Numbered from the stretch's first letter, positions 14,166-25,643 are shown. The stretch: DNA of 64,000 nt from an uncultured Planctomycetota bacterium (GCA_963849325.1 CAWKHF010000002.1:640001-704000); one strand, 5' to 3'. Notes: a model not told the origin generated them from the letters alone. Translations and numbers: made by a program.

Positions 14166-16014
14166 TCAGGATGGCCGTTCCGGGTGGGTCAACAGGTCGC
14201 GGTGGGAGAGTTTCTTGCGGGCGCGTCCCAGGGCGGCGACGGAGAAGATTATCGGATAGAGCTTCTCGAAATACCACAGTTTGGCGAAGTAAAACCCGAT
14301 GGGCGTGGGGTCGTACAGGCCGCCGGCCTCTACCCGCTGGACGAGCCAGGCCAGGCCGTTATTCACGGCCGCCTCCGCGTCGGGCCCGGCGTCGAGCAGC
14401 ACTTCGACGGCCAGGGCCGTTTCCTCGATGCTGGACGGCGTGTCCGCGGCCCCGCCCCAGCCGCCGTCGGCGTTCTGTGCGGCCAGCAGCCAGGCGACGC
14501 CGCGGCGGGCCGGCTCGTCCGTTCATCCTATCGAGGTCGCGGTAAGCGGCCAGCACGCGGGCGGTGCCGTAGGTGGGGTTCTCGTCGTCGGGGGCGTGCT
14601 GGTTGCCGAACCAGAGGGGCAGCCAGGAGCCGTCGGGGCGCTGAGTGTCGGCGAGATAATCCAACCCCCACTCCATCGCCACGACGTCGGCAGGCCGCTT
14701 CGCGATTAAGTGTCCAGAATGTTTGGTAGAGCTTGCCGTTGGTTCTTCTATGCCAGGCCATGACGGCCCGCAGAGCGTGAGCGGTCAGGTCGCTGCCGCT
14801 GCGGTCAAAAGGCAGATGCCCCCAGCCACGGCAGAAGGTGGGCCAACCGCCGTCGCCATTTTGCAGAGCCGAGCAACCAGTCCAGCCCTCTCTTGACCGC
14901 ACGGAAGTTTTCCTCTCCCCAACCCGTGTGTTGAAGGGCCAGCAGAGCACCCGGCGTGTCGTCCGCATCCGGCACGCCGCCCGGCAGGTCGGTCCAGGCC
15001 CAGCCGCCGGGGTCGGCCCCCGTGTAGGGATGCCGCTCCTTGTATTGCTGCCCCAGCAGCCAGTCGCGCACTTCGTCGCCTTTGTCCAGCGTGTCCAGGT
15101 CGCCGGCCGCCGCCAGGGCGTTGACCGACAGCGTCGTCACCCAGGTCGCCAGGTTGGTGTCGATCGGCCAGCTGCCGTCGGGCCGCACCGACTTCACCAG
15201 GAACTCGACGCCCTTGCTGACGACCGGATGGTCGGCCCGGCCGATGCTCGCCAGGCCCAGCGTGACGAAGCTGGTCAGCGGCGTCGCTTCGAGGAAGCCG
15301 CCGCTGGACGGCTGGATGTTCTGCAGCACGCGCAGGCTCTTGCCGATGGCCAGCCGGCGCACCAAGCGCAGCCAGCGGGATTCCGCGGCGGCCGATGGTG
15401 ATAGACCGCCTGCCCGATGGCGATGAGGGCCGGCAGGGCGTAGCTGACGACGGGCAGGCGCAGGAAGCGAAACCACGACTGCGGAAAGCACGCCAGCTCG
15501 AACGGCAGCGACGGCACCTCGCTCCAGGACACCAGGCCGGCCAGGGCGCTGGTCATCAGGATCGGCACCGAGAAGGTGCGGTCCTTGCCGTAGCGGGCGC
15601 GGACCGCCTCGGCCAACTCCTCCGGCGTCTGCGCCGTAGCGCGCGTGCAGCCAGTCGCTCGGCTGCGCCGCAAGGCTGGCGGTCGTAGGTCGCGGCCGTT
15701 CCGGCGAGGTGGAAGGCGGCGCGGCAGAGCATGGTCGTCGAGATGTTGCTGAAGCTCTTGACCGTGTCGCCCCAGCCGCCGTCGGCGTTCTGATGCGCCG
15801 CGAGCCAGGCGAGGCCGCCGGCGATGAGCGGATCGAACGATCCGTGCGCGGCGGTCGCTTTCTGGACCAGGGCGAGGGCGCTGACGGCGGTGGCGGTGGA
15901 GAGGGCGGAGGTGGACAGTTCGCCGACCCAGTGGCCTTCCGGAGTGCGTTCGGCGAGCAGGGCGGCGAGGGCGGTTTGGAAGGCCGAATCCAACTGTTCA
16001 ACCGGCGTTGTCAT
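14166..16014 (-). CDS. Squalene-hopene cyclase-like class II terpene cyclase (frameshifted)
   Basis: [16 protein letters not shown] repeats ([26 protein letters not shown]), DxDD motif [15 protein letters not shown]-terminal [16 protein letters not shown]. Confidence 0.85.
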
Positions 16015-16507
16015 CGTGCGATTTATCCTGCTGTTTCTCTTCCAGTGCGGCCCGAAGCAGGGGTAATACAGCCTTATCTTTGGGGCGCCCCGCCGCCTCT
16101 TTGGTGGCTATCAAGTGGGACAGAGACAGCAGCTTTACGGGGTACGAATCGACGAGGATCTCCTTGGTGTCATCGATTACTTGCTCATACCCACCGATCG
16201 CGCTCATGACGCCCAACAGGTCCAGGGACTCTGTGCCGATTACCAAGGTGAAATTGCTTCCCAGCTGCAAGGCGCGTTCATCGAAGGTAAAAGGAAGATC
16301 GGGTGGTAAACCTCGGAGACGCGGTTGGAGTGGAGCTAGAACTTGGGCCAGCCGAGCGATGTTTCCAGGTGTTCGGCGGTAGCAAATGTCCAGATCCAGC
16401 GTCGCGACTTGAGCTCCTTGCAAGATGGCACTAACTCCGCCAACTATCACGAACTCAACCTGCCCTTACGCCAGTCTAACGATCATGTCTTTCGCGAAAG
16501 GCCACAT
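15998..16507 (-). CDS. Nucleotidyltransferase-fold toxin-like protein; in-frame TAA near the 5' end
   Basis: [30 protein letters not shown]...TLDLDICY...[15 protein letters not shown]/DxD NTase pattern. Confidence 0.72.
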
Positions 16508-16868
16508 CGTCGCGTGCCTCCCGAAGAAACTGCCTCCATCCCTCATGTCGCTCCAACAATTCGTCCGGCGTCATGGCGCGAGCCTGGGCTATCTGAGTGT
16601 AATCGACATCCCCTTGATGGCCGAGGTCGAAACCGTAAGGCTGGGTGACTCCCGGCGTAAAAGGGAGTTCGCGCGGATACCACAGGCAAGCGAGAACATC
16701 CTCCGGCGTCAAACCTTCGTATTCCGCACAAAGATCCGCCGCCGTCGCTCCGCGAGCACATCGCCCGCAGATGTATTCGACCGTGAGTCGCGTTCCTTTT
16801 ATCACCGGCTTCCCCGCCATGATCGCGGGATTGACGGTGATGCGTTCCAGTAGTTGTTTGTCCGCCAT
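16476..16868 (-). CDS. DUF433 antitoxin-like protein with C-terminal extension
   Basis: RITVNPAIMAGKPVIKGTRLTVEYI...LTPEDVLACLWY; GGGAG RBS. Confidence 0.85.
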   Translation of the reverse strand: MADKQLLERITVNPAIMAGKPVIKGTRLTVEYICGRCARGATAADLCAEYEGLTPEDVLACLWYPRELPFTPGVTQPYGFDLGHQGDVDYTQIAQARAMTPDELLERHEGWRQFLREARDDVAFRERHDR

Positions 16869-16878
16869 ATCGACTCCC

Positions 16879-17912
16879 TCAAATCTCCAGCTCATCCAGC
16901 GCATCCATCAGCTTGTCGAGGTCGTCCTTCGGCCCTTGCGGCTTGTCCGCCTGCCGCTTGGGGATGCCGACCGTCAGGCCGACCGCCTCGCCGGCCGTCG
17001 GCGACCAGTTCGCGGTCGCGCTCCTGCGCGGCCATCGCCAAGGCGTCGCCGCCGCCGAACAGCTTGCGTCAGGTCGATCTTCAAGCCGCTGATGTTGCCG
17101 ACCGGGGCGCCGGCGATGGCCGGCGTCTTGTAATCGGGGAACATGATGGCCTGTTCGGGACAGACCCGGCTGCACGCCGGGCAGCCGCGCTTGCAGTTGT
17201 CCTGGTTCTCGACGACAAGACGGTCCAGCTTGTCCACGCCGTAGACGCCGAACAGGCAGAAATCGAGGCACTCCATGCAATTCGTGCAGCGGCTGTAGTC
17301 GATCACCGGATACCAGCGGCGCCCCGGCTGTTGCAGCAGTTGCTCGGAGGAAAATTCCGTCTGGGGTTTGGCCGGTTCCTCGTCGCGGAGATAGCGGCCC
17401 AGCTGCACGAGCGTCGGGTTGCCCTGAATCCAGGTTTTCAGCTGCGTCTCGCGCCGCTCGCGGCACTCCGCGGCGATGCGGCGAACTTCCTCGACGTAGA
17501 CTCGTAGTCGCCGTGGTCGCGCAGGTCGAGAGCAGTAGATGTGGCGGTCGGGCACGTCGACGGCGCCGATGCCCTTGGGCGGCTCCGGTTCGCCGTCCTC
17601 CTCGTCCTCCTCGCCTCGGCCGGCGGCTTGATCTGGTTTTCGCCGTAGTGGCCCTTGATGCCGTCGCGGTCGAGCAGCCAGAAGGCGGCGCGCGGGAACA
17701 TCCAGCGCCAGGACGACCATGTCGCCCTGGACCGACTCCAGGAACAGCCGGCCGGTGTGCTCGGCGTCCAGGTCGTACAGGTAGGGCACGATCGACACGT
17801 CCAGGCCCGGCTCCATGATGAGGGCGGCGGCGATGCTCTCCTCCAGGGCCCGCTTGGCGGGGTTCTTGCCCTGGGCCTGCGACAGGACGACGGTCAGGCG
17901 TTGGCGGCTCAT
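16879..17912 (-). CDS. 4Fe-4S dicluster ferredoxin-domain protein (frameshifted)
   Basis: CTNCMECLDFC and CKRGCPACSRVCP. Confidence 0.85.
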
Positions 17913-17921
17913 GGTGTCAAC

Positions 17922-18385
17922 TCAATCCTCGGTGTTGATCTTGCCCTTGATCAGACGCTGCGTCTTCTCCCAGTTGTCCGCCAGGAACTGATAGTATTCG
18001 TCCACGTCCCACAGACTCGTCGCCGGCGCAGTCCATCTCGAACAGCCAGCCGGCGCCGTAGCCGTCGACGTTGATGCCGGAGGGGTCTTGCAGCAACTCC
18101 GGGTTGAACGCGACGAGCGTGCCGGCCAGCGGGGCGAACAGGTCGGAGACGGCCTTGGACGTTTCGATGTGGCCGATCTGCTGCAGCAGCTTCGACGCGG
18201 TCGCCGGCGTTGACCTGCCAGTCGAGGAAGTACACGTCCTGCATCAGCCGGACGGCGTAGGACGTGAAGCCGAAGCGCAGCCGGCCGCCCTCACAGCGGC
18301 ACCACATGTGATTGCGCGCGTAGCGCAGCCCGCCCGGCAGCACGGCGGGGAACTTGCCCATCAGGAAGGTCAGGTCGTCGGGCAT
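17922..18385 (-). CDS. Glycine cleavage H-protein-like lipoyl carrier (frameshifted)
   Basis: YARNHMW, RFGFTSYAVRLMQDVYFL, GHIETSKAVSDLFAP (lipoyl-Lys position), NVDGYGAGWLFEM. Confidence 0.82.
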
Positions 18386-18399
18386 GACTGCCACAAGTT

Positions 18400-18470
18400 C
18401 ACCGCGAGACGCGAGACGCAGGAATGACAAGAGTACATCATTCGTTCCCTGCGCCTCGCGTCTCGCGGTG
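18400..18470. repeat. Intergenic palindrome (REP-like)
   Basis: caccgcgagacgcgagacgcagg...cctgcgcctcgcgtctcgcggtg. Confidence 0.7.
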
Positions 18471-18477
18471 ATCTCTT

Positions 18478-19811
18478 TCAGGTGTAGCGCGTGCTGCGGT
18501 ACTGCGGCTCGAAGAACACCGGCAGCAGCCGATCCACCTGCAACAACCCCTCGCGCGTCAGCTCCACGCCGTCCGGCCGTGCGCGTCAGGAAGCCGCTCG
18601 CGCTTCCAGCTCGCTCGAAGCCGTCCGCGAAGCTCTCCAGGATATCCGCGCCGAACTTGTGGCGGAAGTAGGCCGGCTCCAGCCGGCCGGTTTTGAGCTG
18701 CAGGATCATCTCGCGGATCAGCCGCTGGCGCGGCGTCGACCGGCAGCGCCCGGCCCAGCGGCAGCTCGTCCCTGTCGCAGCATGCTCGACGTACTGCTCC
18801 CAGCGTATCGACGTTCTGGACGTGGACGCCGTGGACGTGGCCGAACGAGGCGACGCCGGTGCCGAACATGTCGGCCCCGTGCCACAGGCTGTCGCGGTAG
18901 ACGAAGCGGCAGCGCTGCCGGTCCTTGACCAGCGTGTAGGCGCTGGAGACCTCGTAGCCCGCCGGCGATCATCTGTCGAAGGCGTAGTTGACCCAGGCCC
19001 GCTTGGTCGGCCAGTCGGCGATCGGCCATGGCCGGCTCGTCCTGGCCGATCACCTGCAGTTCCTGCGAGAAGACGCGTGTTGAACGGCAATTCCATCTGG
19101 TAGATGGTGACGCTGTCGGGCGCCAGGGCGAGCGTCTTGCGCACGCACTGTCTTCCAGTTGTCCCACGTCTCGCCGACCATGCCGGCGATCAGGTCGATG
19201 TTGATCTGCTCGAAGCCGAGGTCGCGCGCCCAGCCGTAGGCGCGGTAGATCTCCTCTTCGAGATGGGCCCGGCCGTTGAATTCGAGGATCTTCGGGTCGA
19301 AGTTCTCGACGCCGAGGCTGAGCCGGGTCACGCCGAGCTCGCGCAGCGCTTCGAGCTTGTGCTGCTGCAGCGTGCCCGGCTCGCACTCGAAGGTCACTTC
19401 CTCGGCGCCGTCCCACGGCAGGACTGCCTGCAGCCGCTCCATCAGGCCGCGCAGCTGCGCCGGCGCTGAGGTACGACGGCGTGCCGCCGCCGAAGTAGAC
19501 GTAGTTGCAGCGGCCGGCCGCCGACGAGCGGGACGCGGCTGTACAGCTCGACTTCCTTGACCAGGGCGTCGAGGTAGGTTTCCACGTCGCGGGCGTTCTT
19601 GTCGGTGTAGACGCGGAAGTAGCAGAACTTGCAGCGCTTCCGGCAGAACGGGATGTGCAGGTACAGCCCCAGCGGCGTGCCGGGCTGCGGCGGCCGCGTC
19701 GAGGGCGGCGCGGGCGTCGGGCAGGTGGGCCGGCTTCCAGGCCGAGAACGGCGGATAGTTGGCGACGAAGTAGTTGCCCAATCCTGTAGACTCATCACAA
19801 GTCTTTGTCAT
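18478..19811 (-). CDS. HemN-like radical SAM enzyme (frameshifted; N-terminus supplied by the integrated element)
   Basis: [18 protein letters not shown] (CxxxCxxC), [41 protein letters not shown]. Confidence 0.9.
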
Positions 19812-19842
19812 ATAAGCACTTCCGGCAACAGTGAAAAACGTT

Positions 19843-19864
19843 TGACACGGAATTGACACGGAAT
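19843..19864 (+). repeat. Left arm-type integrase binding repeats, 2 x TGACACGGAAT
   Basis: Two exact tandem 11-mers; same motif recurs at 23923-23974. Confidence 0.8.
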
Positions 19865-19881
19865 GGCACCTTGCCTACACT
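19853..19881 (+). promoter_or_regulatory. Sigma70-type promoter of the integrase
   Basis: TTGACA (19853-19858), 17 bp spacer, TACACT (19876-19881). Confidence 0.7.
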
Positions 19882-19940
19882 GTAGGCAGGTGGTTTTGGG
19901 GAACCGTAAGGTACAACAGCAAGCAGCGGAGAACCGAATC

Positions 19941-21016
19941 ATGGCACGCAAGAGCCGGGTCCGTGGTGGTGGGAGGCGAGACAACAATGGTTCGTCACGC
20001 ACAAGGGCAAGCAAGTCCCTCTTGGCAAGGATGAGGCGGAAGCTCGCCGTCAATGGCACTTCCTTGAAGCAAGTGCCCAAACGCATACGGCAGGTGACGG
20101 CAACCTCTTCGTTGCCCTTGCCGACAACTTCCTTGACTGGATCAAGCGGCACAAGAAACCGAAGACGTTCAGCGTCTATCGTATCCATTTGGAGGCGTTC
20201 GGCAAGGTGCATCCTACGGTCGCTGTCCACGAATTGAAACCTCATCATGTTGACGCTGTTGTCCAGCTTCATCCGACCTGGGGCAAGAGTACGATTCGTG
20301 GGTTCATGGTGGCTGTGAACACTTGCCTGAATTGGGCAGTTAAGCAAGGGTTCACGACACGGAACCCGCTCCATCGTCGTCTGACCATCCCCGCCATCGT
20401 CAGCCGTGGCGGTCAGAAGGATGTACCGATCCCGCCGGAGGACTACGCCGTGATGCTCGCCCATGCGAACCCGAACCTGAGAGACTTCATCATCGCTTGT
20501 CGCAATACTGGCACTCGCCCTGAGAACGTAGCAGCGGCGACAGCGAAGGACTACCACAAGGAAGCGGCTTGTTGGGTTCTCGGAACGCATAAGACGGATG
20601 AGGATGGTAGCAGTCTCGTCATCCACTTGAACCCGACGATGGTAGCTTTGACGGAGCGGTTGATTGCCAAGTACCCGGAGGGTCCGTTGTTCAGGAACAA
20701 CCAAGGGAACCCCTGGCGGGATGAGGTATGGGGCAAGGCAATGGCGGGGTTGAAAAAGACGCTGGCGGCGAAGGGTATCAAGTTGAAGAGCCGGGGAATC
20801 ATGTATGGTTTCAGGCACGGTGTAGCGACCGATCTACTTGAGGCGGGAGTACCAGAGGCGCACGTTGCCGCAATCCTGGGTCACAAGTCCACGGTGATGA
20901 TCCACAAGCATTACAGCCATTTGACCAGTCGTCACGCTGCTTTGAAAGTACATCTTGAACATATCCAACCGACAGCGGGCGAAGTCACAACCGGAGATGC
21001 TTCAACCCCGCAATGA
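19941..21016 (+). CDS. Tyrosine recombinase/integrase (frameshift near codon 6)
   Basis: ATG 19941 with GGAG RBS, then shifted frame PWWWEARQQWFVTHKGKQVPLG; catalytic NTGTRPEN, HKT, YGFRHG, ILGHKS, HKHYSH. Confidence 0.93.
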
Positions 21017-21275
21017 CGGTTGTTGTCTGCCGTGGTAATCGCACAGACCCTCGCATACCTGGCGAGGGTTTTTCATTGGTACATGACGGAGCGGACGGGA
21101 ACCGGCGACGTTCCTTGTACGCCGTCACGCTGGCGGCGTAAATCACTTTCTTCGCTCCGACCGTATGCCCGTCAAGTTCGCCAGCGTCAATCAGTTTGTA
21201 GACTCTGCGACGTGAACAGCCAAGTCGTTCAGCGGCTTGCAAAGTGGTCAGTAGTTCGTTCGTGGTGCCGTTCAT
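20985..21275 (-). CDS. Excisionase-like HTH protein
   Basis: LLTTLQAAERLGCSRRRVYKLIDAGELDGHTVG; convergent with and overlapping the integrase 3' end. Confidence 0.85.
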   Translation of the reverse strand: MNGTTNELLTTLQAAERLGCSRRRVYKLIDAGELDGHTVGAKKVIYAASVTAYKERRRFPSAPSCTNEKPSPGMRGSVRLPRQTTTVIAGLKHLRL

Positions 21276-21406
21276 GGTCCGGCACTTCTACGCCGTTTTG
21301 TTGACTGTCTCAAGTGAGGGTCATCCACTTTGTTTGGCAAAGCTATGGTCGGTCTGATTAGATAATCCACGGCGGCGACAATACAAACCATGAACAAAGG
21401 AACAGC

Positions 21407-21769
21407 GTGATAACAGCCGAAAAAGTGATTTCTGCATTCAAGACAAAGTACCCTGTCGTGAGGTATCAAGACTTCTATTTGGCGGGGAAAAACTACCTGA
21501 ACATACGGAGCAAGTCCGAGGCGAGCTACCATCGGAAGACAAAGCGGTATGAGTTCGGTATGCCCAGACGGGATTATGACAGGTATCTCCGTATGGTCAA
21601 AGAAGGGCGACAGGTGTACTCTCTGATAATCGAGAGCAAGTCCGACACCTTGTACATTGCCAAGCTCTCAGACTTGGCGGCGTATGCTCGGATGTACGAT
21701 GGTGACAAAGTGGACAAGGGCGGGAGCGTATTCCTGCCAAGAGACAGGTACAGGAAAGTGGAAGTCTGA
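21407..21769 (+). CDS. Basic hypothetical protein (possible degenerate nuclease fold)
   Basis: AAAGGAA RBS before GTG; 120 aa K/R/Y-rich ORF upstream of Rep. Confidence 0.6.
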   Translation: MITAEKVISAFKTKYPVVRYQDFYLAGKNYLNIRSKSEASYHRKTKRYEFGMPRRDYDRYLRMVKEGRQVYSLIIESKSDTLYIAKLSDLAAYARMYDGDKVDKGGSVFLPRDRYRKVEV

Positions 21770-21779
21770 AAAAGAAGAT

Positions 21780-21804
21780 GCCCGGTTGTGTTCAGCAACC
21801 GGGC
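21780..21804. other. Hairpin between orphan ORF and Rep
   Basis: gcccggttg-tgttcag-caaccgggc, 9 bp stem. Confidence 0.5.
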
Positions 21805-21835
21805 GGTGATTTGATTCACAGAAGCGGCGGCAACC

Positions 21836-22618
21836 ATGAACCACGAAACAGCAATCTATGGTAGTATCCCAAATCAGCTTTTTCAACAGCAACCGGAGTG
21901 CGGTCGCAAGTTTGGTTACCGGCAACCGCATGGATGGACTACGCTACTCGGCTATTGGCGGGAGTCATCCAAGCTATGCCAGTTGATCGACTTGAACAGC
22001 CAGTTGCGGAAGCGGGACTACACCTGGGCGGTATCTCTGAATATCGAGCATGTACTTGACGTGGCGGAAGTCAAGCGAGTCTGGAAACATATCTGCCGTG
22101 AATTGCGTCGGCGAGATGTAGTGGCTCTTTGGCTTCGTGAACCTTCACCTGAGAACCACGTCAACTACCATCTCCTAATCGCCAGCGATCAGATGAAACT
22201 TGAATTGGCGGATGCCATTGACGCTAGTATCCCCGAAGGTATCAAGCACCACAAGCAGATTGACGCCATTCACGATGAATGGAGCCATGCCAGATACATC
22301 GTCAAGGCGAAGGTCAAGGCATACGTTGACGGCAAGTTTCTTCTCGACAAGTACAAGGACAAGCGGCTGTTGTTCGTCAAGAAAAGCGGTCTGCAAAAGT
22401 ACGGCGTCATTGGTCCATTCTGGGTTCGTCCGGTAGGCGAGCTATGGCAGACCATCATCGCCAGAGAGAAGCGGATTGCTGACGGACTGGAATCGCCGGG
22501 GGTACGAGCGGAAGTGGAACACCTGTACGAGCTACTTGACGGCACGGTATCGAGACGACAGATAGAGCGGTCGCTGGGGTTCCACGGTGGCACCGTGGGG
22601 AAGGTCGCTACACTATAG
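21836..22618 (+). CDS. HUH-superfamily rolling-circle replication initiator-like protein
   Basis: Motif I-like WAVSLNI, WKHICRELRRR...LWLRE, motif II variant HVNYHLLI, motif III ARYIVK. Confidence 0.7.
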   Translation: MNHETAIYGSIPNQLFQQQPECGRKFGYRQPHGWTTLLGYWRESSKLCQLIDLNSQLRKRDYTWAVSLNIEHVLDVAEVKRVWKHICRELRRRDVVALWLREPSPENHVNYHLLIASDQMKLELADAIDASIPEGIKHHKQIDAIHDEWSHARYIVKAKVKAYVDGKFLLDKYKDKRLLFVKKSGLQKYGVIGPFWVRPVGELWQTIIAREKRIADGLESPGVRAEVEHLYELLDGTVSRRQIERSLGFHGGTVGKVATL

Positions 22619-22714
22619 GTGGTATGCAAAATTGGAACACAACCGAAGAGGTTGAGCAACCAGGAACAAGCGGGACAGCGGGAACCTCGCTACACCATAG
22701 GTAGTATGCCAAGA

Positions 22715-22972
22715 CAGCGGTGACAGGTACATCAAGATCAGCGGTGACAAGTACCACTTCATCAAGATCAGCGGTGACAGGTACATCAAGATCAGCGGTG
22801 ACAAGTACCACTTCATCAAGATCAGCGGTGACAGGTACATCAAGATCAGCGGTGACAGGTACATCAAGATCAGCGGTGACAGGTACATCAAGATCAGCGG
22901 TGACAGGTACATCAAGATCAGCGGTGACAGGTACATCAAGATCAGCGGTGACAGGTACATCAAGATCAGCGG
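22715..22972. repeat. Tandem array: 8 x 24-bp and 2 x 30-bp units
   Basis: A=cagcggtgacaggtacatcaagat, B=cagcggtgacaagtaccacttcatcaagat; order A B A B A A A A A A plus partial. Confidence 0.95.
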
Positions 22973-23699
22973 CTTCTTTGGGTTGTTTCGTTTCGTGGAC
23001 CGTGCCAGCCCGCTGTGTACGTTTTCGACAAATTGGAAGTGATTTCAGGCAAAGTACCCTGTATCTGACGTTATTAACGCCATAGGTCCGTGGTATCTCC
23101 CCATCATCTCCGATACTCCCTTGTCCCGATGATGCCATTCTGAACGCCTAGAATCGCTTCTGAGGCGGGTTGCGGTCCCCAAAGAGGGGATAGGGCTGTC
23201 TATCGAGCCGGAAAGCGACAGCGGAGCGACGGGGAGGGCGGCGAGTAGTACCTGGGTGACGGGGGGATAAGGGGAGCGAAAACATTGTCGCGCCGTTTCG
23301 CCTGACCGGCTTCAACTCCGTGTGCGCTATTAAGCAGCATTTTAATTGTTTCGGGGCGGAGAGATGTACCTGGCGGTCATGGTCCTGCCGGTCTCGGTCA
23401 AGGTGGTCGTGGTCGTGGTCAAGGCGGCGAGATGTACCTGGCGGTCATGGTCGGTCAGTGTTCGGGGGTCGATCCCGTTACGGGATTTCCCGCAACGGGC
23501 TGTATGGGTTCGTGGCGAGAATGCCCCCTCTGACGCCTCCCTGTCGCTTCCACGGTGACGGCGAGAACCGATCCGAGTATCGGGCTGTCTATCGAACCGG
23601 AAGCGGCGTAGGGGCGACGGGGAGGGCGGCGAGATGTACCTGGGAAACGGCGGCGAGCATCCGGTTGAAGGCGGCGGCGAGTAGTACCTGGCTATCGTG

Positions 23700-23880
23700 G
23701 TCGAGATCGTGGTCATGGTCGAGATGTCGAGATCGTGGTCATGGTCGAGATGTCGAGATCGTGGTCATGGTCGAGATGTCGAGATCGTGGTCATGGTCGA
23801 GATGTCGAGATCGTGGTCATGGTCGAGATGTCGAGATCGTGGTCATGGTCGAGATGTCGAGATCGTGGTCGAGATCGTGG
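23700..23880. repeat. Tandem array: 6 x 26-bp unit plus partial
   Basis: Unit gtcgagatcgtggtcatggtcgagat. Confidence 0.95.
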
Positions 23881-23922
23881 AACCACAGCGGTTAGTTAGT
23901 GGAAAAGAAGTTGCCCGAACCT

Positions 23923-23974
23923 TGACACGGAATTGACACAGAACCCCCCGAAATGACACGGAATTGCACGGAAA
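23923..23974 (+). repeat. Right arm-type integrase binding repeats (4 copies)
   Basis: tgacacggaat, tgacacagaac, tgacacggaat, tgcacggaaa. Confidence 0.8.
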
Positions 23975-24019
23975 ACGGGGCGAGACAGGCGAACAGTACC
24001 ATCCACAAAGACTGTATCT

Positions 24020-24106
24020 CTAGGACTTTACGGCGATGAAGACTTGTACACGGTTGACGACGAAGTAATTGCCGAGACCCGTCTTTTCTTGCGTGGCTTC
24101 GGTCAT
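24020..24106 (-). pseudogene. Stranded native 5' end of the radical SAM gene
   Basis: Reads [16 protein letters not shown] then runs into element DNA (VNRVQVFIAVKS*); matches [13 protein letters not shown] of the gene at 18478..19811. Confidence 0.88.
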
Positions 24107-24270: not shown

Positions 24271-25643
24271 ATGCAACGCCCTCATCTGCTGTTCGTGACG
24301 GGGAAGCTGGCCGAGCCTTCGCTGCGGCACATGCTGGACGAGCTGGCGCCGCGCCGGCTTTGACTTCAGCGTGGCCGTGCTGCCGATCACGGTCGTCGCC
24401 CTGGCCACAACCCCCTGGATTGCGCCGCCATTTGACGGTCCCTTCGGAGATCGATCGCGTCATTCTCCCCGGTCTCTGTCAGGGAGAACTGGGGCCGGTG
24501 CGCGCGTTCGGCGTTCCCGTGGAGCGCGGCCCTGGCGACCTGCGCGACCTGCCGGACTTCTTCCGCACCTCCAGAGAGCCGTGCAGCGATTACGGATCTT
24601 ACGACATCGCCATTCTCGCCGAGATCAATCACGCTCCCCGTCTGAACCGTCCGGACATCCTGCGCGAAGCCGTCGCTCTGCACGCCGACGGTGCCGACGT
24701 CATCGACATCGGCTGCGATCCGGGTTCGACGTGGGCGGGCGTCGCCGATACGGTTCGGGCGTTACGCGACGCGGGTCTGCGCGTCTCCATCGATAGTTTT
24801 GATCCGCGCGAGGTCGAGGCGGCGGTCGCCGCCGGGGCCGAACTGGTGCTGAGCGTCAACAGCAGCAATGTGTCCGCGGCTCGCTCGTGGGGCTGCGAGG
24901 TCGTCGTGCTGCCCGACGTGCTCGCCACGCTGGAAGGACTGGATGGCACCGTCGAGAAGCTACAATCCTGGGGGGTAAAGTTTCGGATCGATCCGGTGAT
25001 CGAGCCGATTGGCCTGGGCTTTGCTGCCTCGCTGGGACGCTATCTCGAAGTGCGGCGCCGTTACCCCGATGCCGAGATGCTGATGGGGGTTGGCAACCTC
25101 ACCGAGTTGACCGACGTGGATTCCGCCGGCATCAATGTGCTCCTGCTCGGCTTCTGCCAGGAAGTCGGCATTCGCAGCGTGCTGACGACGCAGGTCATCA
25201 ACTGGTGCCGCAGCTGCGTCCGCGAATTGGATCGGGCACGCCGGCTGGTGTACCATGCCTGTACGCGCCGCGTGCTGCCCAAGCACGTCGAGCCGGACCT
25301 ACTCTTGCTGCGCGATCCGAAGCTGCGCACGCATGGCGAAGCGATGCTCAGCGATTTGGCCTCCCGGATCGCGGATCGCAACTTCCGCCTGTTCGCCGAG
25401 CGCGGCCTGCTGCACGTCCTCAATAACCAGATGTTCCTGCAAGGCGGTGATCCGTTCGCGCTGTTCGAGCAGATGCAGCAGCGCGCGGACATCGATCCCG
25501 CGCACGCTTTCTATCTCGGCTACGAGATGGCCAAGGCGGTGACCGCGTTGACGCTGGGCAAGAACTACACGCAGGACCAGGCGCTGCGTTGGGGCTTTCT
25601 GACCGTGAAGGAGCGTTCCCGTCACGATGGCCCCCGTGATTGA
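24271..25643 (+). CDS. Dihydropteroate synthase-related protein (DUF6513 / H4MPT-pathway Orf20-like; frameshifted 5' end)
   Basis: MQRPHLLFVTGKLAEPSL, GADVIDIGC, VSIDSFD, GVGNLTELTDVDSAG, HAFYLGYEMAKA...NYTQDQAL. Confidence 0.78.

Follow-up and report, generated by a model that had tools for sequence, protein, structure and literature searches.

A 4.3-kb planctomycete element inserted in a HemN-family gene combines a tyrosine integrase with an HUH-superfamily Rep protein: a candidate integrative rolling-circle replicon

In a 64,000-nucleotide (nt) stretch of a contig from an uncultured Planctomycetota bacterium (GCA_963849325.1, CAWKHF010000002.1:640001-704000), hereafter the window, we identified a mobile element, a block of inserted foreign DNA at positions 19758-24073 that interrupts the 5' end of a gene of the HemN/HemW family. 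We put at about 0.6 the probability that this block is an integrated, plasmid-like element of 4.3 kb that excises and replicates by the rolling-circle mechanism. The element is delimited by two direct repeats of 21 bp each (attL and attR), with a spacing of 4,295 bp, and the G+C content between them is 54.4%, compared to 66.0% in the remaining window. It contains four genes, coding for a tyrosine integrase, an excisionase (Xis), the product of an orphan open reading frame (ORF) of 120 amino acids (ORF120), and a 260-amino-acid Rep-like protein; the remaining 1,434 bp (22619-24052) are repeat-rich and include no called gene (Table 1). An earlier interpretation of this DNA (the sequence-only reading) had described a 4295-bp block with four genes and about 1.4 kb of repeat-rich DNA, and the coordinates of the repeats, genes, and arrays agree with that description. 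The 21-bp att-like direct repeats that it reported are present at the ends it gave, but are not identical (19 of 21 positions).

On the minus strand, both repeats fall within the first 20 codons of the interrupted radical-SAM gene (hereafter hemN), the intact ortholog of which scores best against TIGR00538 and TIGR00539, under the equivalog cut-off in both cases. In all six same-genus genomes that were fetched, the left and right flanks are contiguous and contain one 21-bp copy. Hence, the empty attB, for which the sequence-only reading had suggested a search, was found in each of them, and the outcome that would contradict an insertion, namely, relatives carrying this DNA with no empty site, was not seen. 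The element DNA was not found in the 30 relatives searched; in the assembly of its own genome (84.7% complete, 14 contigs; this completeness applies to all searches of this genome reported below), it occurs once and on no contig of its own. Compared with the empty sites, attL is host-like at position 5 and differs at position 16, and attR shows the reverse. Because these one-base differences are reciprocal and flank a common 10-mer, sequence comparison places strand exchange within this 10-bp stretch, which is common to attP and attB. Empty targets in relatives together with hybrid att sites mark the block as a site-specific integrative element. Short repeats of 11 bp are located on both sides in the layout that would be expected of integrase arm sites around attP, and exact copies of the arm-repeat 10-mer number four in the 64-kb window, every one at the ends of the element. 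The element also provides a look-alike 5' end for the interrupted gene: a nine-codon mimic, in frame with the hemN body, preserves the length of the native N-terminus, and the replacement N-terminus retains 11 of the native first 16 residues. In the native 5' end stranded beyond attR, 17 of 18 residues agree with the N-terminus of the ortholog.

The integrase is a tyrosine recombinase by its matches to PF00589 (46.2 bits, cut-off 27.1) and phrog_1 (5.7e-42) and shares 55-67% identity across 96-100% of its length with 13 homologs. Xis matches the excisionase model TIGR01764 (42.2 bits, cut-off 28.8) and the helix-turn-helix (HTH) model PF12728 (38.2 bits, cut-off 27). Integrase homologs at E<=1e-60 were detected in 4 of 400 other genomes of the class, all from the family to which the window belongs. 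In all four, the integrase is located approximately 140-170 bp (measured from the ends of the tblastn matches) from the 5' end of the HemN-family gene, in divergent orientation, and the same att core is found in the same hemN codons; a Xis homolog follows the integrase in three. These loci show that an integrase lineage dedicated to one site put the element into codons 13-19 of the HemN-family gene. A second att copy, present in two of the four genomes, delimits elements of 7,086 bp (L096) and 8,408 bp (L098), each with similar short repeats next to the distal att copy. L096 carries an HNH endonuclease, a 363-amino-acid PF23343-like protein (E 5e-4), and a sulfate permease, and L098 carries a 297-amino-acid PF23343-like protein (E 6e-6; phrog_3584, "replication initiation protein"), an HNH endonuclease, and a ParB-methylase. 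The two PF23343-like proteins align weakly with the family alignment of the window Rep (A5) in hhalign (E 0.0019 and 0.048 for L096 and L098, respectively), with the motifs in register. In a third genome (L097, 4007-5617, minus strand), a D5_N/DUF5906 (D5-type) primase-helicase is encoded instead of an HUH Rep, which points to module swapping among elements that use one integration site. Judged by gene content, the window element is the smallest of a set that combines a common integration module with some replication module. The search for integrase-xis-rep modules elsewhere, another check put forward by the sequence-only reading, was productive in that this lineage occupies the hemN site in four genomes, two of them with distant PF23343-like Reps.

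The 260-amino-acid protein belongs to the Rep class of the HUH superfamily, an assignment based on a sequence profile, a predicted structure, and motifs. A search of the PDB with a profile of 17 Rep sequences retrieved one structure below E 0.001, the Rep protein ORF119 of the virus SIRV1 (2x3g, E 3e-4), and the alignment covers motifs I to III. An AlphaFold (AF2) model built from a 74-sequence alignment reached a predicted local distance difference test (pLDDT) of 94 and a predicted template modeling score (pTM) of 0.88; it replaced a first model from 17 sequences (pLDDT 64), for which fold searches were swamped by generic ferredoxin-like folds. The core of the model, residues 64-144, shows the order beta-alpha-beta-beta-alpha-beta (strand 64-70, helix 76-92, strands 97-103 and 109-115, helix 121-131, strand 138-144). 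In an exhaustive structural comparison with 48,161 chains, the best match was 2x3g (Z 7.2, root-mean-square deviation 3.1, 106 residues aligned), followed, both at Z 6.6, by pMV158 RepB (3dkx, 110 residues aligned) and the origin-binding domain of RepB (8amu, 114 residues aligned); a Helitron transposase, parvovirus NS1, a nanovirus Rep, and a REP-associated tyrosine transposase came next at Z 5.3-6.0. Foldseek likewise ranked RepB and ORF119 first (E 4e-3 and 7e-3). The structural check of this gene product against HUH Reps thus yielded an HUH-type fold, with ORF119 and pMV158 RepB making up the best three matches. Three residues (E102, Y154, and K157) do not vary among 74 relatives, of which 71 have H112. 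The ordered motifs I, II, and III, the YxxK signature, and the N-Y-H in motif II noticed in the sequence-only reading are borne out, motif II being N110-Y111-H112 and motif III Y154-x-x-K157, 42 residues past H112 on the model helix 148-156. The tyrosine follows motif II, the order typical of Reps; a tyrosine C-terminal to the HUH motif marks the Rep class, not the relaxase class. No helicase domain was detected in the protein.

A word-indexed protein search with the window Rep retrieved 15 homologs at E<=1e-3, and a full scan of 1.84 billion representatives returned 435 clusters at this threshold, 291 at E<=1e-10, and 146 at E<=1e-30. Species-representative genomes contained 23 Rep loci, all from Planctomycetota, and metagenome contigs contributed 33 more; in an even sample of the phylum, 2 of 401 genomes matched at E<=1e-5, one of them the genome of the window itself. 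The narrower profile of the close clade (A2) had no match in the genome contigs collection. In a cluster of 55 loci (53 fetched loci, the window, and the second copy in the same genome), 30 encode a recombinase within 6 kb of Rep: resolvases at 26, large serine recombinases at 15, both at 13, and tyrosine recombinases at 7; many loci lacking a recombinase are short contigs. The integrase, Xis, and ORF120 of the window have no close copy in 56 Rep loci by tblastn. One metagenome contig of 5,209 bp (L067) has a 127-bp terminal overlap and assembles as a circle of 5.1 kb that encodes Rep, a small conserved ORF, a leucine-rich-repeat protein, a resolvase, and a large serine recombinase, a gene order that recurs in many Rep loci. 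This contig is the sole direct hint of a free circular form in the Rep family.

The second Rep of the same family in this genome (contig C5:822967-823698; L004, 7863-8780) shares 41% identity with the window Rep and has a canonical H-F-H motif. The low-G+C stretch around it is larger and also encodes a DUF5131 protein and a coiled-coil protein; a gene for a small HTH protein immediately precedes this rep, and an IS3-like element is present downstream in two inverted copies.

The repeat-rich region downstream of rep consists of two tandem arrays separated by dispersed repeats. The heptamer CAGGTAC occurs in eight forward copies in array 1 and in five reverse copies at 23248-23691. The latter belong to the 8-mer CCAGGTAC, of which the window contains five copies, all in this interval (0.8 expected); two are located within 76-bp duplicated segments, and the repeat families D3, D5, and D11 were delineated here. 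The spacer between the opposed motifs is a candidate origin core. The hairpin upstream of rep (fold z -2.7, stem lengthened to 10 pairs) has counterparts at seven related loci, where perfect hairpins are found 8-45 nt 5' of rep. As a speculation, this hairpin could be a minus-strand terminator below a weak minus-strand promoter match inside rep, in which case an antisense copy-control RNA might be produced; the idea is speculative because promoter-like matches are no commoner than in shuffled sequences. The repeat region has no DNA or translated match in related loci, and in its own genome matches itself and one weak stretch resembling the 26-bp array on contig C5, nothing more.

Table 1. Features of the element and its junctions, in window coordinates (., no strand given)
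Feature	Coordinates	Strand	Remarks
attL core	19758..19778	.	hemN body to left, element to right
Element-supplied replacement hemN 5' end	19779..19811	-	start codon at 19811
Two 11-bp repeats next to attL	19842..19864	+	read as P' arm integrase sites
Hairpin between arm sites and integrase gene	19870..19890	+	9-bp stem; z -3.56, 0/200 shuffles fold as well
Tyrosine integrase gene	19941..21016	+	ATG at 19941; 1-nt frame shift near 19955-19960
Excisionase/HTH_17 gene (Xis)	20985..21275	-	convergent to integrase
Terminator-like hairpin and T-run 3' of integrase gene	21047..21069	+	z -3.36, 1/200 shuffles fold as well
Orphan ORF, 120 amino acids (ORF120)	21407..21769	+	function unassigned by family searches
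Hairpin 33 nt upstream of rep	21780..21804	.	perfect 9-bp stem; candidate nick-site hairpin or minus-strand terminator
HUH-superfamily Rep gene	21836..22618	+	260 amino acids, one catalytic tyrosine
Two 33-nt repeats (85% alike), family D8	22598..22712	+	span rep stop codon and array 1 start
Tandem array 1	22710..22972	+	24/30-bp units, 10.5 copies; CAGGTAC in eight units
Spacer between forward and reverse CAGGTAC motifs	22973..23247	.	275 bp; within lowest-G+C part of element
Five dispersed copies of CCAGGTAC	23248..23691	-	orientation opposed to array 1
Tandem array 2	23700..23870	+	26-bp units, 6.6 copies, 100% identical
Three to four 11-bp arm-type repeats next to attR (P arm)	23922..23973	+	
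attR core	24053..24073	.	matches attL at 19/21
Stranded native hemN 5' end	24053..24106	-	start codon at 24106

Under the reading that we favor, the integrase and Xis, acting on the arm repeats on either side of the core, would excise the element as a circle. The single-tyrosine Rep, which resembles RepB and ORF119 in having no helicase domain, would then nick one strand at the origin, for which the hairpin preceding rep and the spacer flanked by the opposed CAGGTAC repeats are the candidates, and prime rolling-circle replication with the help of a host helicase and polymerase. The repeat arrays could be binding sites for Rep or an accessory protein, with roles in origin function and copy control. 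Because the element carries no capsid or transfer genes, spread between cells would depend on a helper or on natural uptake. A broader proposition, which we consider tentative and place a little short of even odds, is that Planctomycetota, and no other phylum, harbor an undescribed group of integrative rolling-circle replicons, with this element as its smallest member. The group would be defined by a new clade of HUH Reps (435 clusters at 50% identity), which would have been combined time and again with interchangeable recombinases (a tyrosine integrase with Xis at hemN, a resolvase with a large serine recombinase elsewhere), and its members would alternate between the chromosome and a circle of 4-5 kb, with the origin under opposed iteron arrays. 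Such opposed arrays are unusual for rolling-circle replicons.

Several observations weigh against a rolling-circle replicon. Searched alone, the window Rep has no match in Pfam, PHROGs, or NCBIfam, and against PF23343 (REP_ORF2-G2P), with its gathering cut-off of 27.8 bits, it returns nothing at E<=1. Among its 17 aligned relatives, 13 match this model at E<=0.1 (best 1.4e-7), and L067 Rep alone among the Rep ORFs scanned passes the cut-off (28.8 bits), which, at the sequence level, places the family at the edge of PF23343. The structural Z-scores are all below 8, that is, moderate by the guidance of the tool, and the Foldseek E-values never fall below 1e-3; the ferredoxin-like core is common, so that the fold alone would not decide the assignment, which therefore rests on the agreement of sequence, structure, and motifs. 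The first histidine of the HUH motif is replaced by asparagine in the window Rep. Among the 74 relatives, this position is occupied by H in 58 and N in 16, and a histidine at position 108, two residues upstream, is present in 14 of the 16 N-forms versus 3 of the 58 H-forms, figures to be taken as a count and not a test because the aligned sequences are related and not phylogenetically independent. N-Y-H is a recurrent natural variant, and this pattern suggests that its metal ligand may have shifted by two residues. No nick site was identified in the element, and the repeat-poor 727 nt (22973-23699), folded as single-stranded DNA, were no better than shuffled sequences (z 0.78 and -0.04) as a fold similar to a single-strand origin. 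Examination of 55 further loci (L004 and those of L024-L079 that have a rep match) revealed no tandem arrays near rep, and none were found in the other hemN-site elements, so the arrays, by these comparisons, are not a feature of the wider Rep family. Furthermore, tblastn with Rep detected no match in 72,556 plasmid records or 50,697 phage records; therefore, no family member is known from a proven replicon.

The state of the integrase gene is a further point of this kind. As a correction to the sequence-only reading, the frame of this gene shifts by 1 nt at about codon 6, inside a short C/G run, and if the break is real, the element would be locked in place. The N-terminal motif that is read straight through in the 13 integrase homologs is split over two frames in the window. 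All four host genes compared with orthologs (window 16882-19811 and 24271-25640) change frame 2 to 5 times, the HemN-family gene four or more times, and the assembly seems to carry many indel errors. Because host genes also change frame and the 13 homologs are uninterrupted, the shift is most simply explained, and probably accounted for, by an assembly indel. By the same token, an assembly error is the simplest explanation for the long tail of the Xis ORF, the gene calls in this window cannot be relied on, and the label "non-coding" for 22619-24052 is provisional.

Among alternative explanations, it is possible, although in our estimate unlikely, that this is an integrative mobilizable element, with the HUH protein serving chiefly as a relaxase that nicks an origin of transfer on the circle and delivers a strand into the channel of a helper, replication being secondary. 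In PMC5714925, the HUH Rep_1 proteins of pC194 and pUB110 are reported to act as relaxases, and ICEBs1 is reported to mobilize both plasmids via its coupling protein; PMC5704250 and PMC5357655 describe integrative mobilizable elements. The genome that hosts the window encodes five coupling proteins (PF02534) of the type IV secretion system (T4SS), and the two loci examined are parts of repeated elements with large serine recombinases. No match to a Zot, coat, relaxase, or T4SS family was found among the four element ORFs in Pfam, PHROGs, or NCBIfam, in accord with the sequence-only reading, and none of these ORFs contains an FtsK/TraB-like translocase domain, which sets the element apart from pSAM2-like integrative and conjugative elements (ICEs). 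In the genome, at 84.7% completeness, no VirB4 (PF03135), no AAA_10 above the cut-off, and no PF03432 relaxase were detected, so no complete transfer machine is in view. The order of the HUH motif and the tyrosine, which is that of Reps, and the assembly of the relative L067 as a free circle also argue against this explanation. Mobilization of the element by a helper is conceivable but unsupported.

The five coupling-protein genes are located at C6:375716-376990, C4:489317-490582, C1:5772-7058, C5:41310-42671, and C9:15735-17003 of this genome (G000; loci L086-L090, L100, and L101). The two loci examined share a gene order, with a HEAT-repeat protein, unknown ORFs, the coupling protein, two small ORFs, and a large serine recombinase, and may represent an unusual repeated mobile element.

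We regard as quite improbable that the element is a minimal phage satellite (PICI/PICMI-like), in which a helper phage would induce excision, Rep would amplify the circle, and the arrays would function in packaging or interference. An integrase, Xis, and an initiator, a repeat-built origin, the absence of structural genes, and small size are indeed reminiscent of satellites, and an HNH endonuclease adjoins Rep in the hemN-site elements L096 and L098. Structural or packaging PHROGs, however, were found in none of 35 ORFs of related elements and in none of the four window ORFs; the Rep family was detected neither in IMG/VR (profile A3) nor in the phage records; and no helper phage was identified. 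Zot (PF05707) was detected neither in the element nor in the genome (84.7% complete), which speaks against a filamentous (inovirus-type) prophage.

Comparably improbable is an immobile, decaying remnant of one integration, with a frameshifted integrase and junk repeats that have expanded. The integrase start and body are in different frames, and the assembly contains the element as a single copy with no separate contig. Yet at least two frame changes were found in every host gene compared, in an assembly that is itself incomplete, so that the shift is most simply an error; Rep, Xis, and the remainder of the integrase are full length against homologs; the att cores and arm repeats are intact; and the absence of the element from 30 relatives suggests a recent arrival. 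The insertion is accounted for by the att duplication, the integrase, and the empty sites, and an IS91- or Helitron-type transposon was therefore rejected.

Several other features of the element and the window were noted. ORF120 has no family match in Pfam, PHROGs, or NCBIfam, retrieves itself alone among 5.8 billion proteins, and in a protein atlas gives a weak lead to PDDEXK_14 and nothing stronger. If there is an indel error at that place, the true start of ORF120 may be the ATG at 21390, which is one frame off. Two 21-mers that are 86% alike (21386-21406 and 21832-21852) span the start regions of ORF120 and rep. The 8-mer TCATGGTC is present in nine copies in the window, all within the element and on the plus strand, one of which overlaps the xis start codon. 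Each unit of both arrays contains one GATC, and 16 of the 26 GATC sites of the element are in the arrays. An Rfam scan produced two chance-level rows and nothing else. Outside the element, a low-G+C patch (56-58%) at 15998-16904 encodes, on the minus strand, a DUF433 protein (2.3e-19) followed by a 150-amino-acid ORF with no Pfam match, a layout that we take to resemble a toxin-antitoxin-like pair.

To our knowledge, Planctomycetota have few characterized plasmids and few genetic tools. The attP/attB pair, integrase, Xis, and candidate rep-origin cassette could be developed into a shuttle replicon and an integration vector for use in this phylum. The HUH Rep superfamily gains a sizeable uncharacterized clade, in which the first metal-binding histidine has apparently moved by two residues. 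The association of one Rep family with two unrelated recombinase systems bears on the modular assembly of small hitch-hiking elements.

Among known proteins, pMV158 RepB and SIRV1 ORF119 share with the window Rep the core fold, the order of motifs I, II, and III, the single catalytic tyrosine, and the absence of a helicase domain; in pMV158, direct repeats of the origin likewise form a binding locus (the title of 8amu refers to the RepB origin-binding domain on the "DDR region"). The window Rep differs in that identity in the structural alignments is 8-13%, motif II reads H-x-N-x-H, the C-terminal helical half (residues 200-259) is unmatched, and the gene belongs to an integrating element, not to a free plasmid or a linear virus.

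At the level of the whole element, pSAM2-like ICEs of actinomycetes are chromosomal elements that encode an integrase, Xis, and a rolling-circle Rep together and replicate once excised. These ICEs, however, integrate into tRNA genes, have a size of about 9-25 kb, and encode spread functions in addition to an FtsK-like transfer gene, whereas the window element, at 4.3 kb, lacks a transfer gene, has the 5' end of a protein-coding gene as its target, and encodes a Rep of an unrelated family. Phage satellites (PICI, PICMI, and PLE) have a minimal size, the integrase-Xis-initiator layout, and a repeat-built (iteron-type) origin; their initiators are primase-helicases or RepA_N proteins, and these satellites carry at least some phage-interference or packaging genes. 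In the window element, by contrast, the initiator is an HUH nuclease, and no interference or packaging genes were seen. In Firmicutes, integrative mobilizable elements, for which mobilization has been demonstrated, can encode Rep_trans or Rep_1/Rep_2 proteins, which are relaxases with a relationship to rolling-circle initiators. Elements of this type (PMC5704250, PMC5357655, and PMC5714925) are likewise small, encode a tyrosine or serine recombinase, and have no mating apparatus. The window protein, however, falls into another HUH clade, and a search of its genome revealed no helper transfer machine. In the full-text literature covered, which leaves out most subscription journals, no such planctomycete element was described and the Pfam family was not named. 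Thus, the statement of the sequence-only reading that it knew of none from planctomycetes agrees with the full texts, but the integrase/Xis/Rep architecture is known from other phyla. In this phylum, for which elements of this kind appear to be undescribed, the window element combines this known architecture with an uncharacterized Rep clade, an unusual repeat region, and a protein-coding gene as the integration target.

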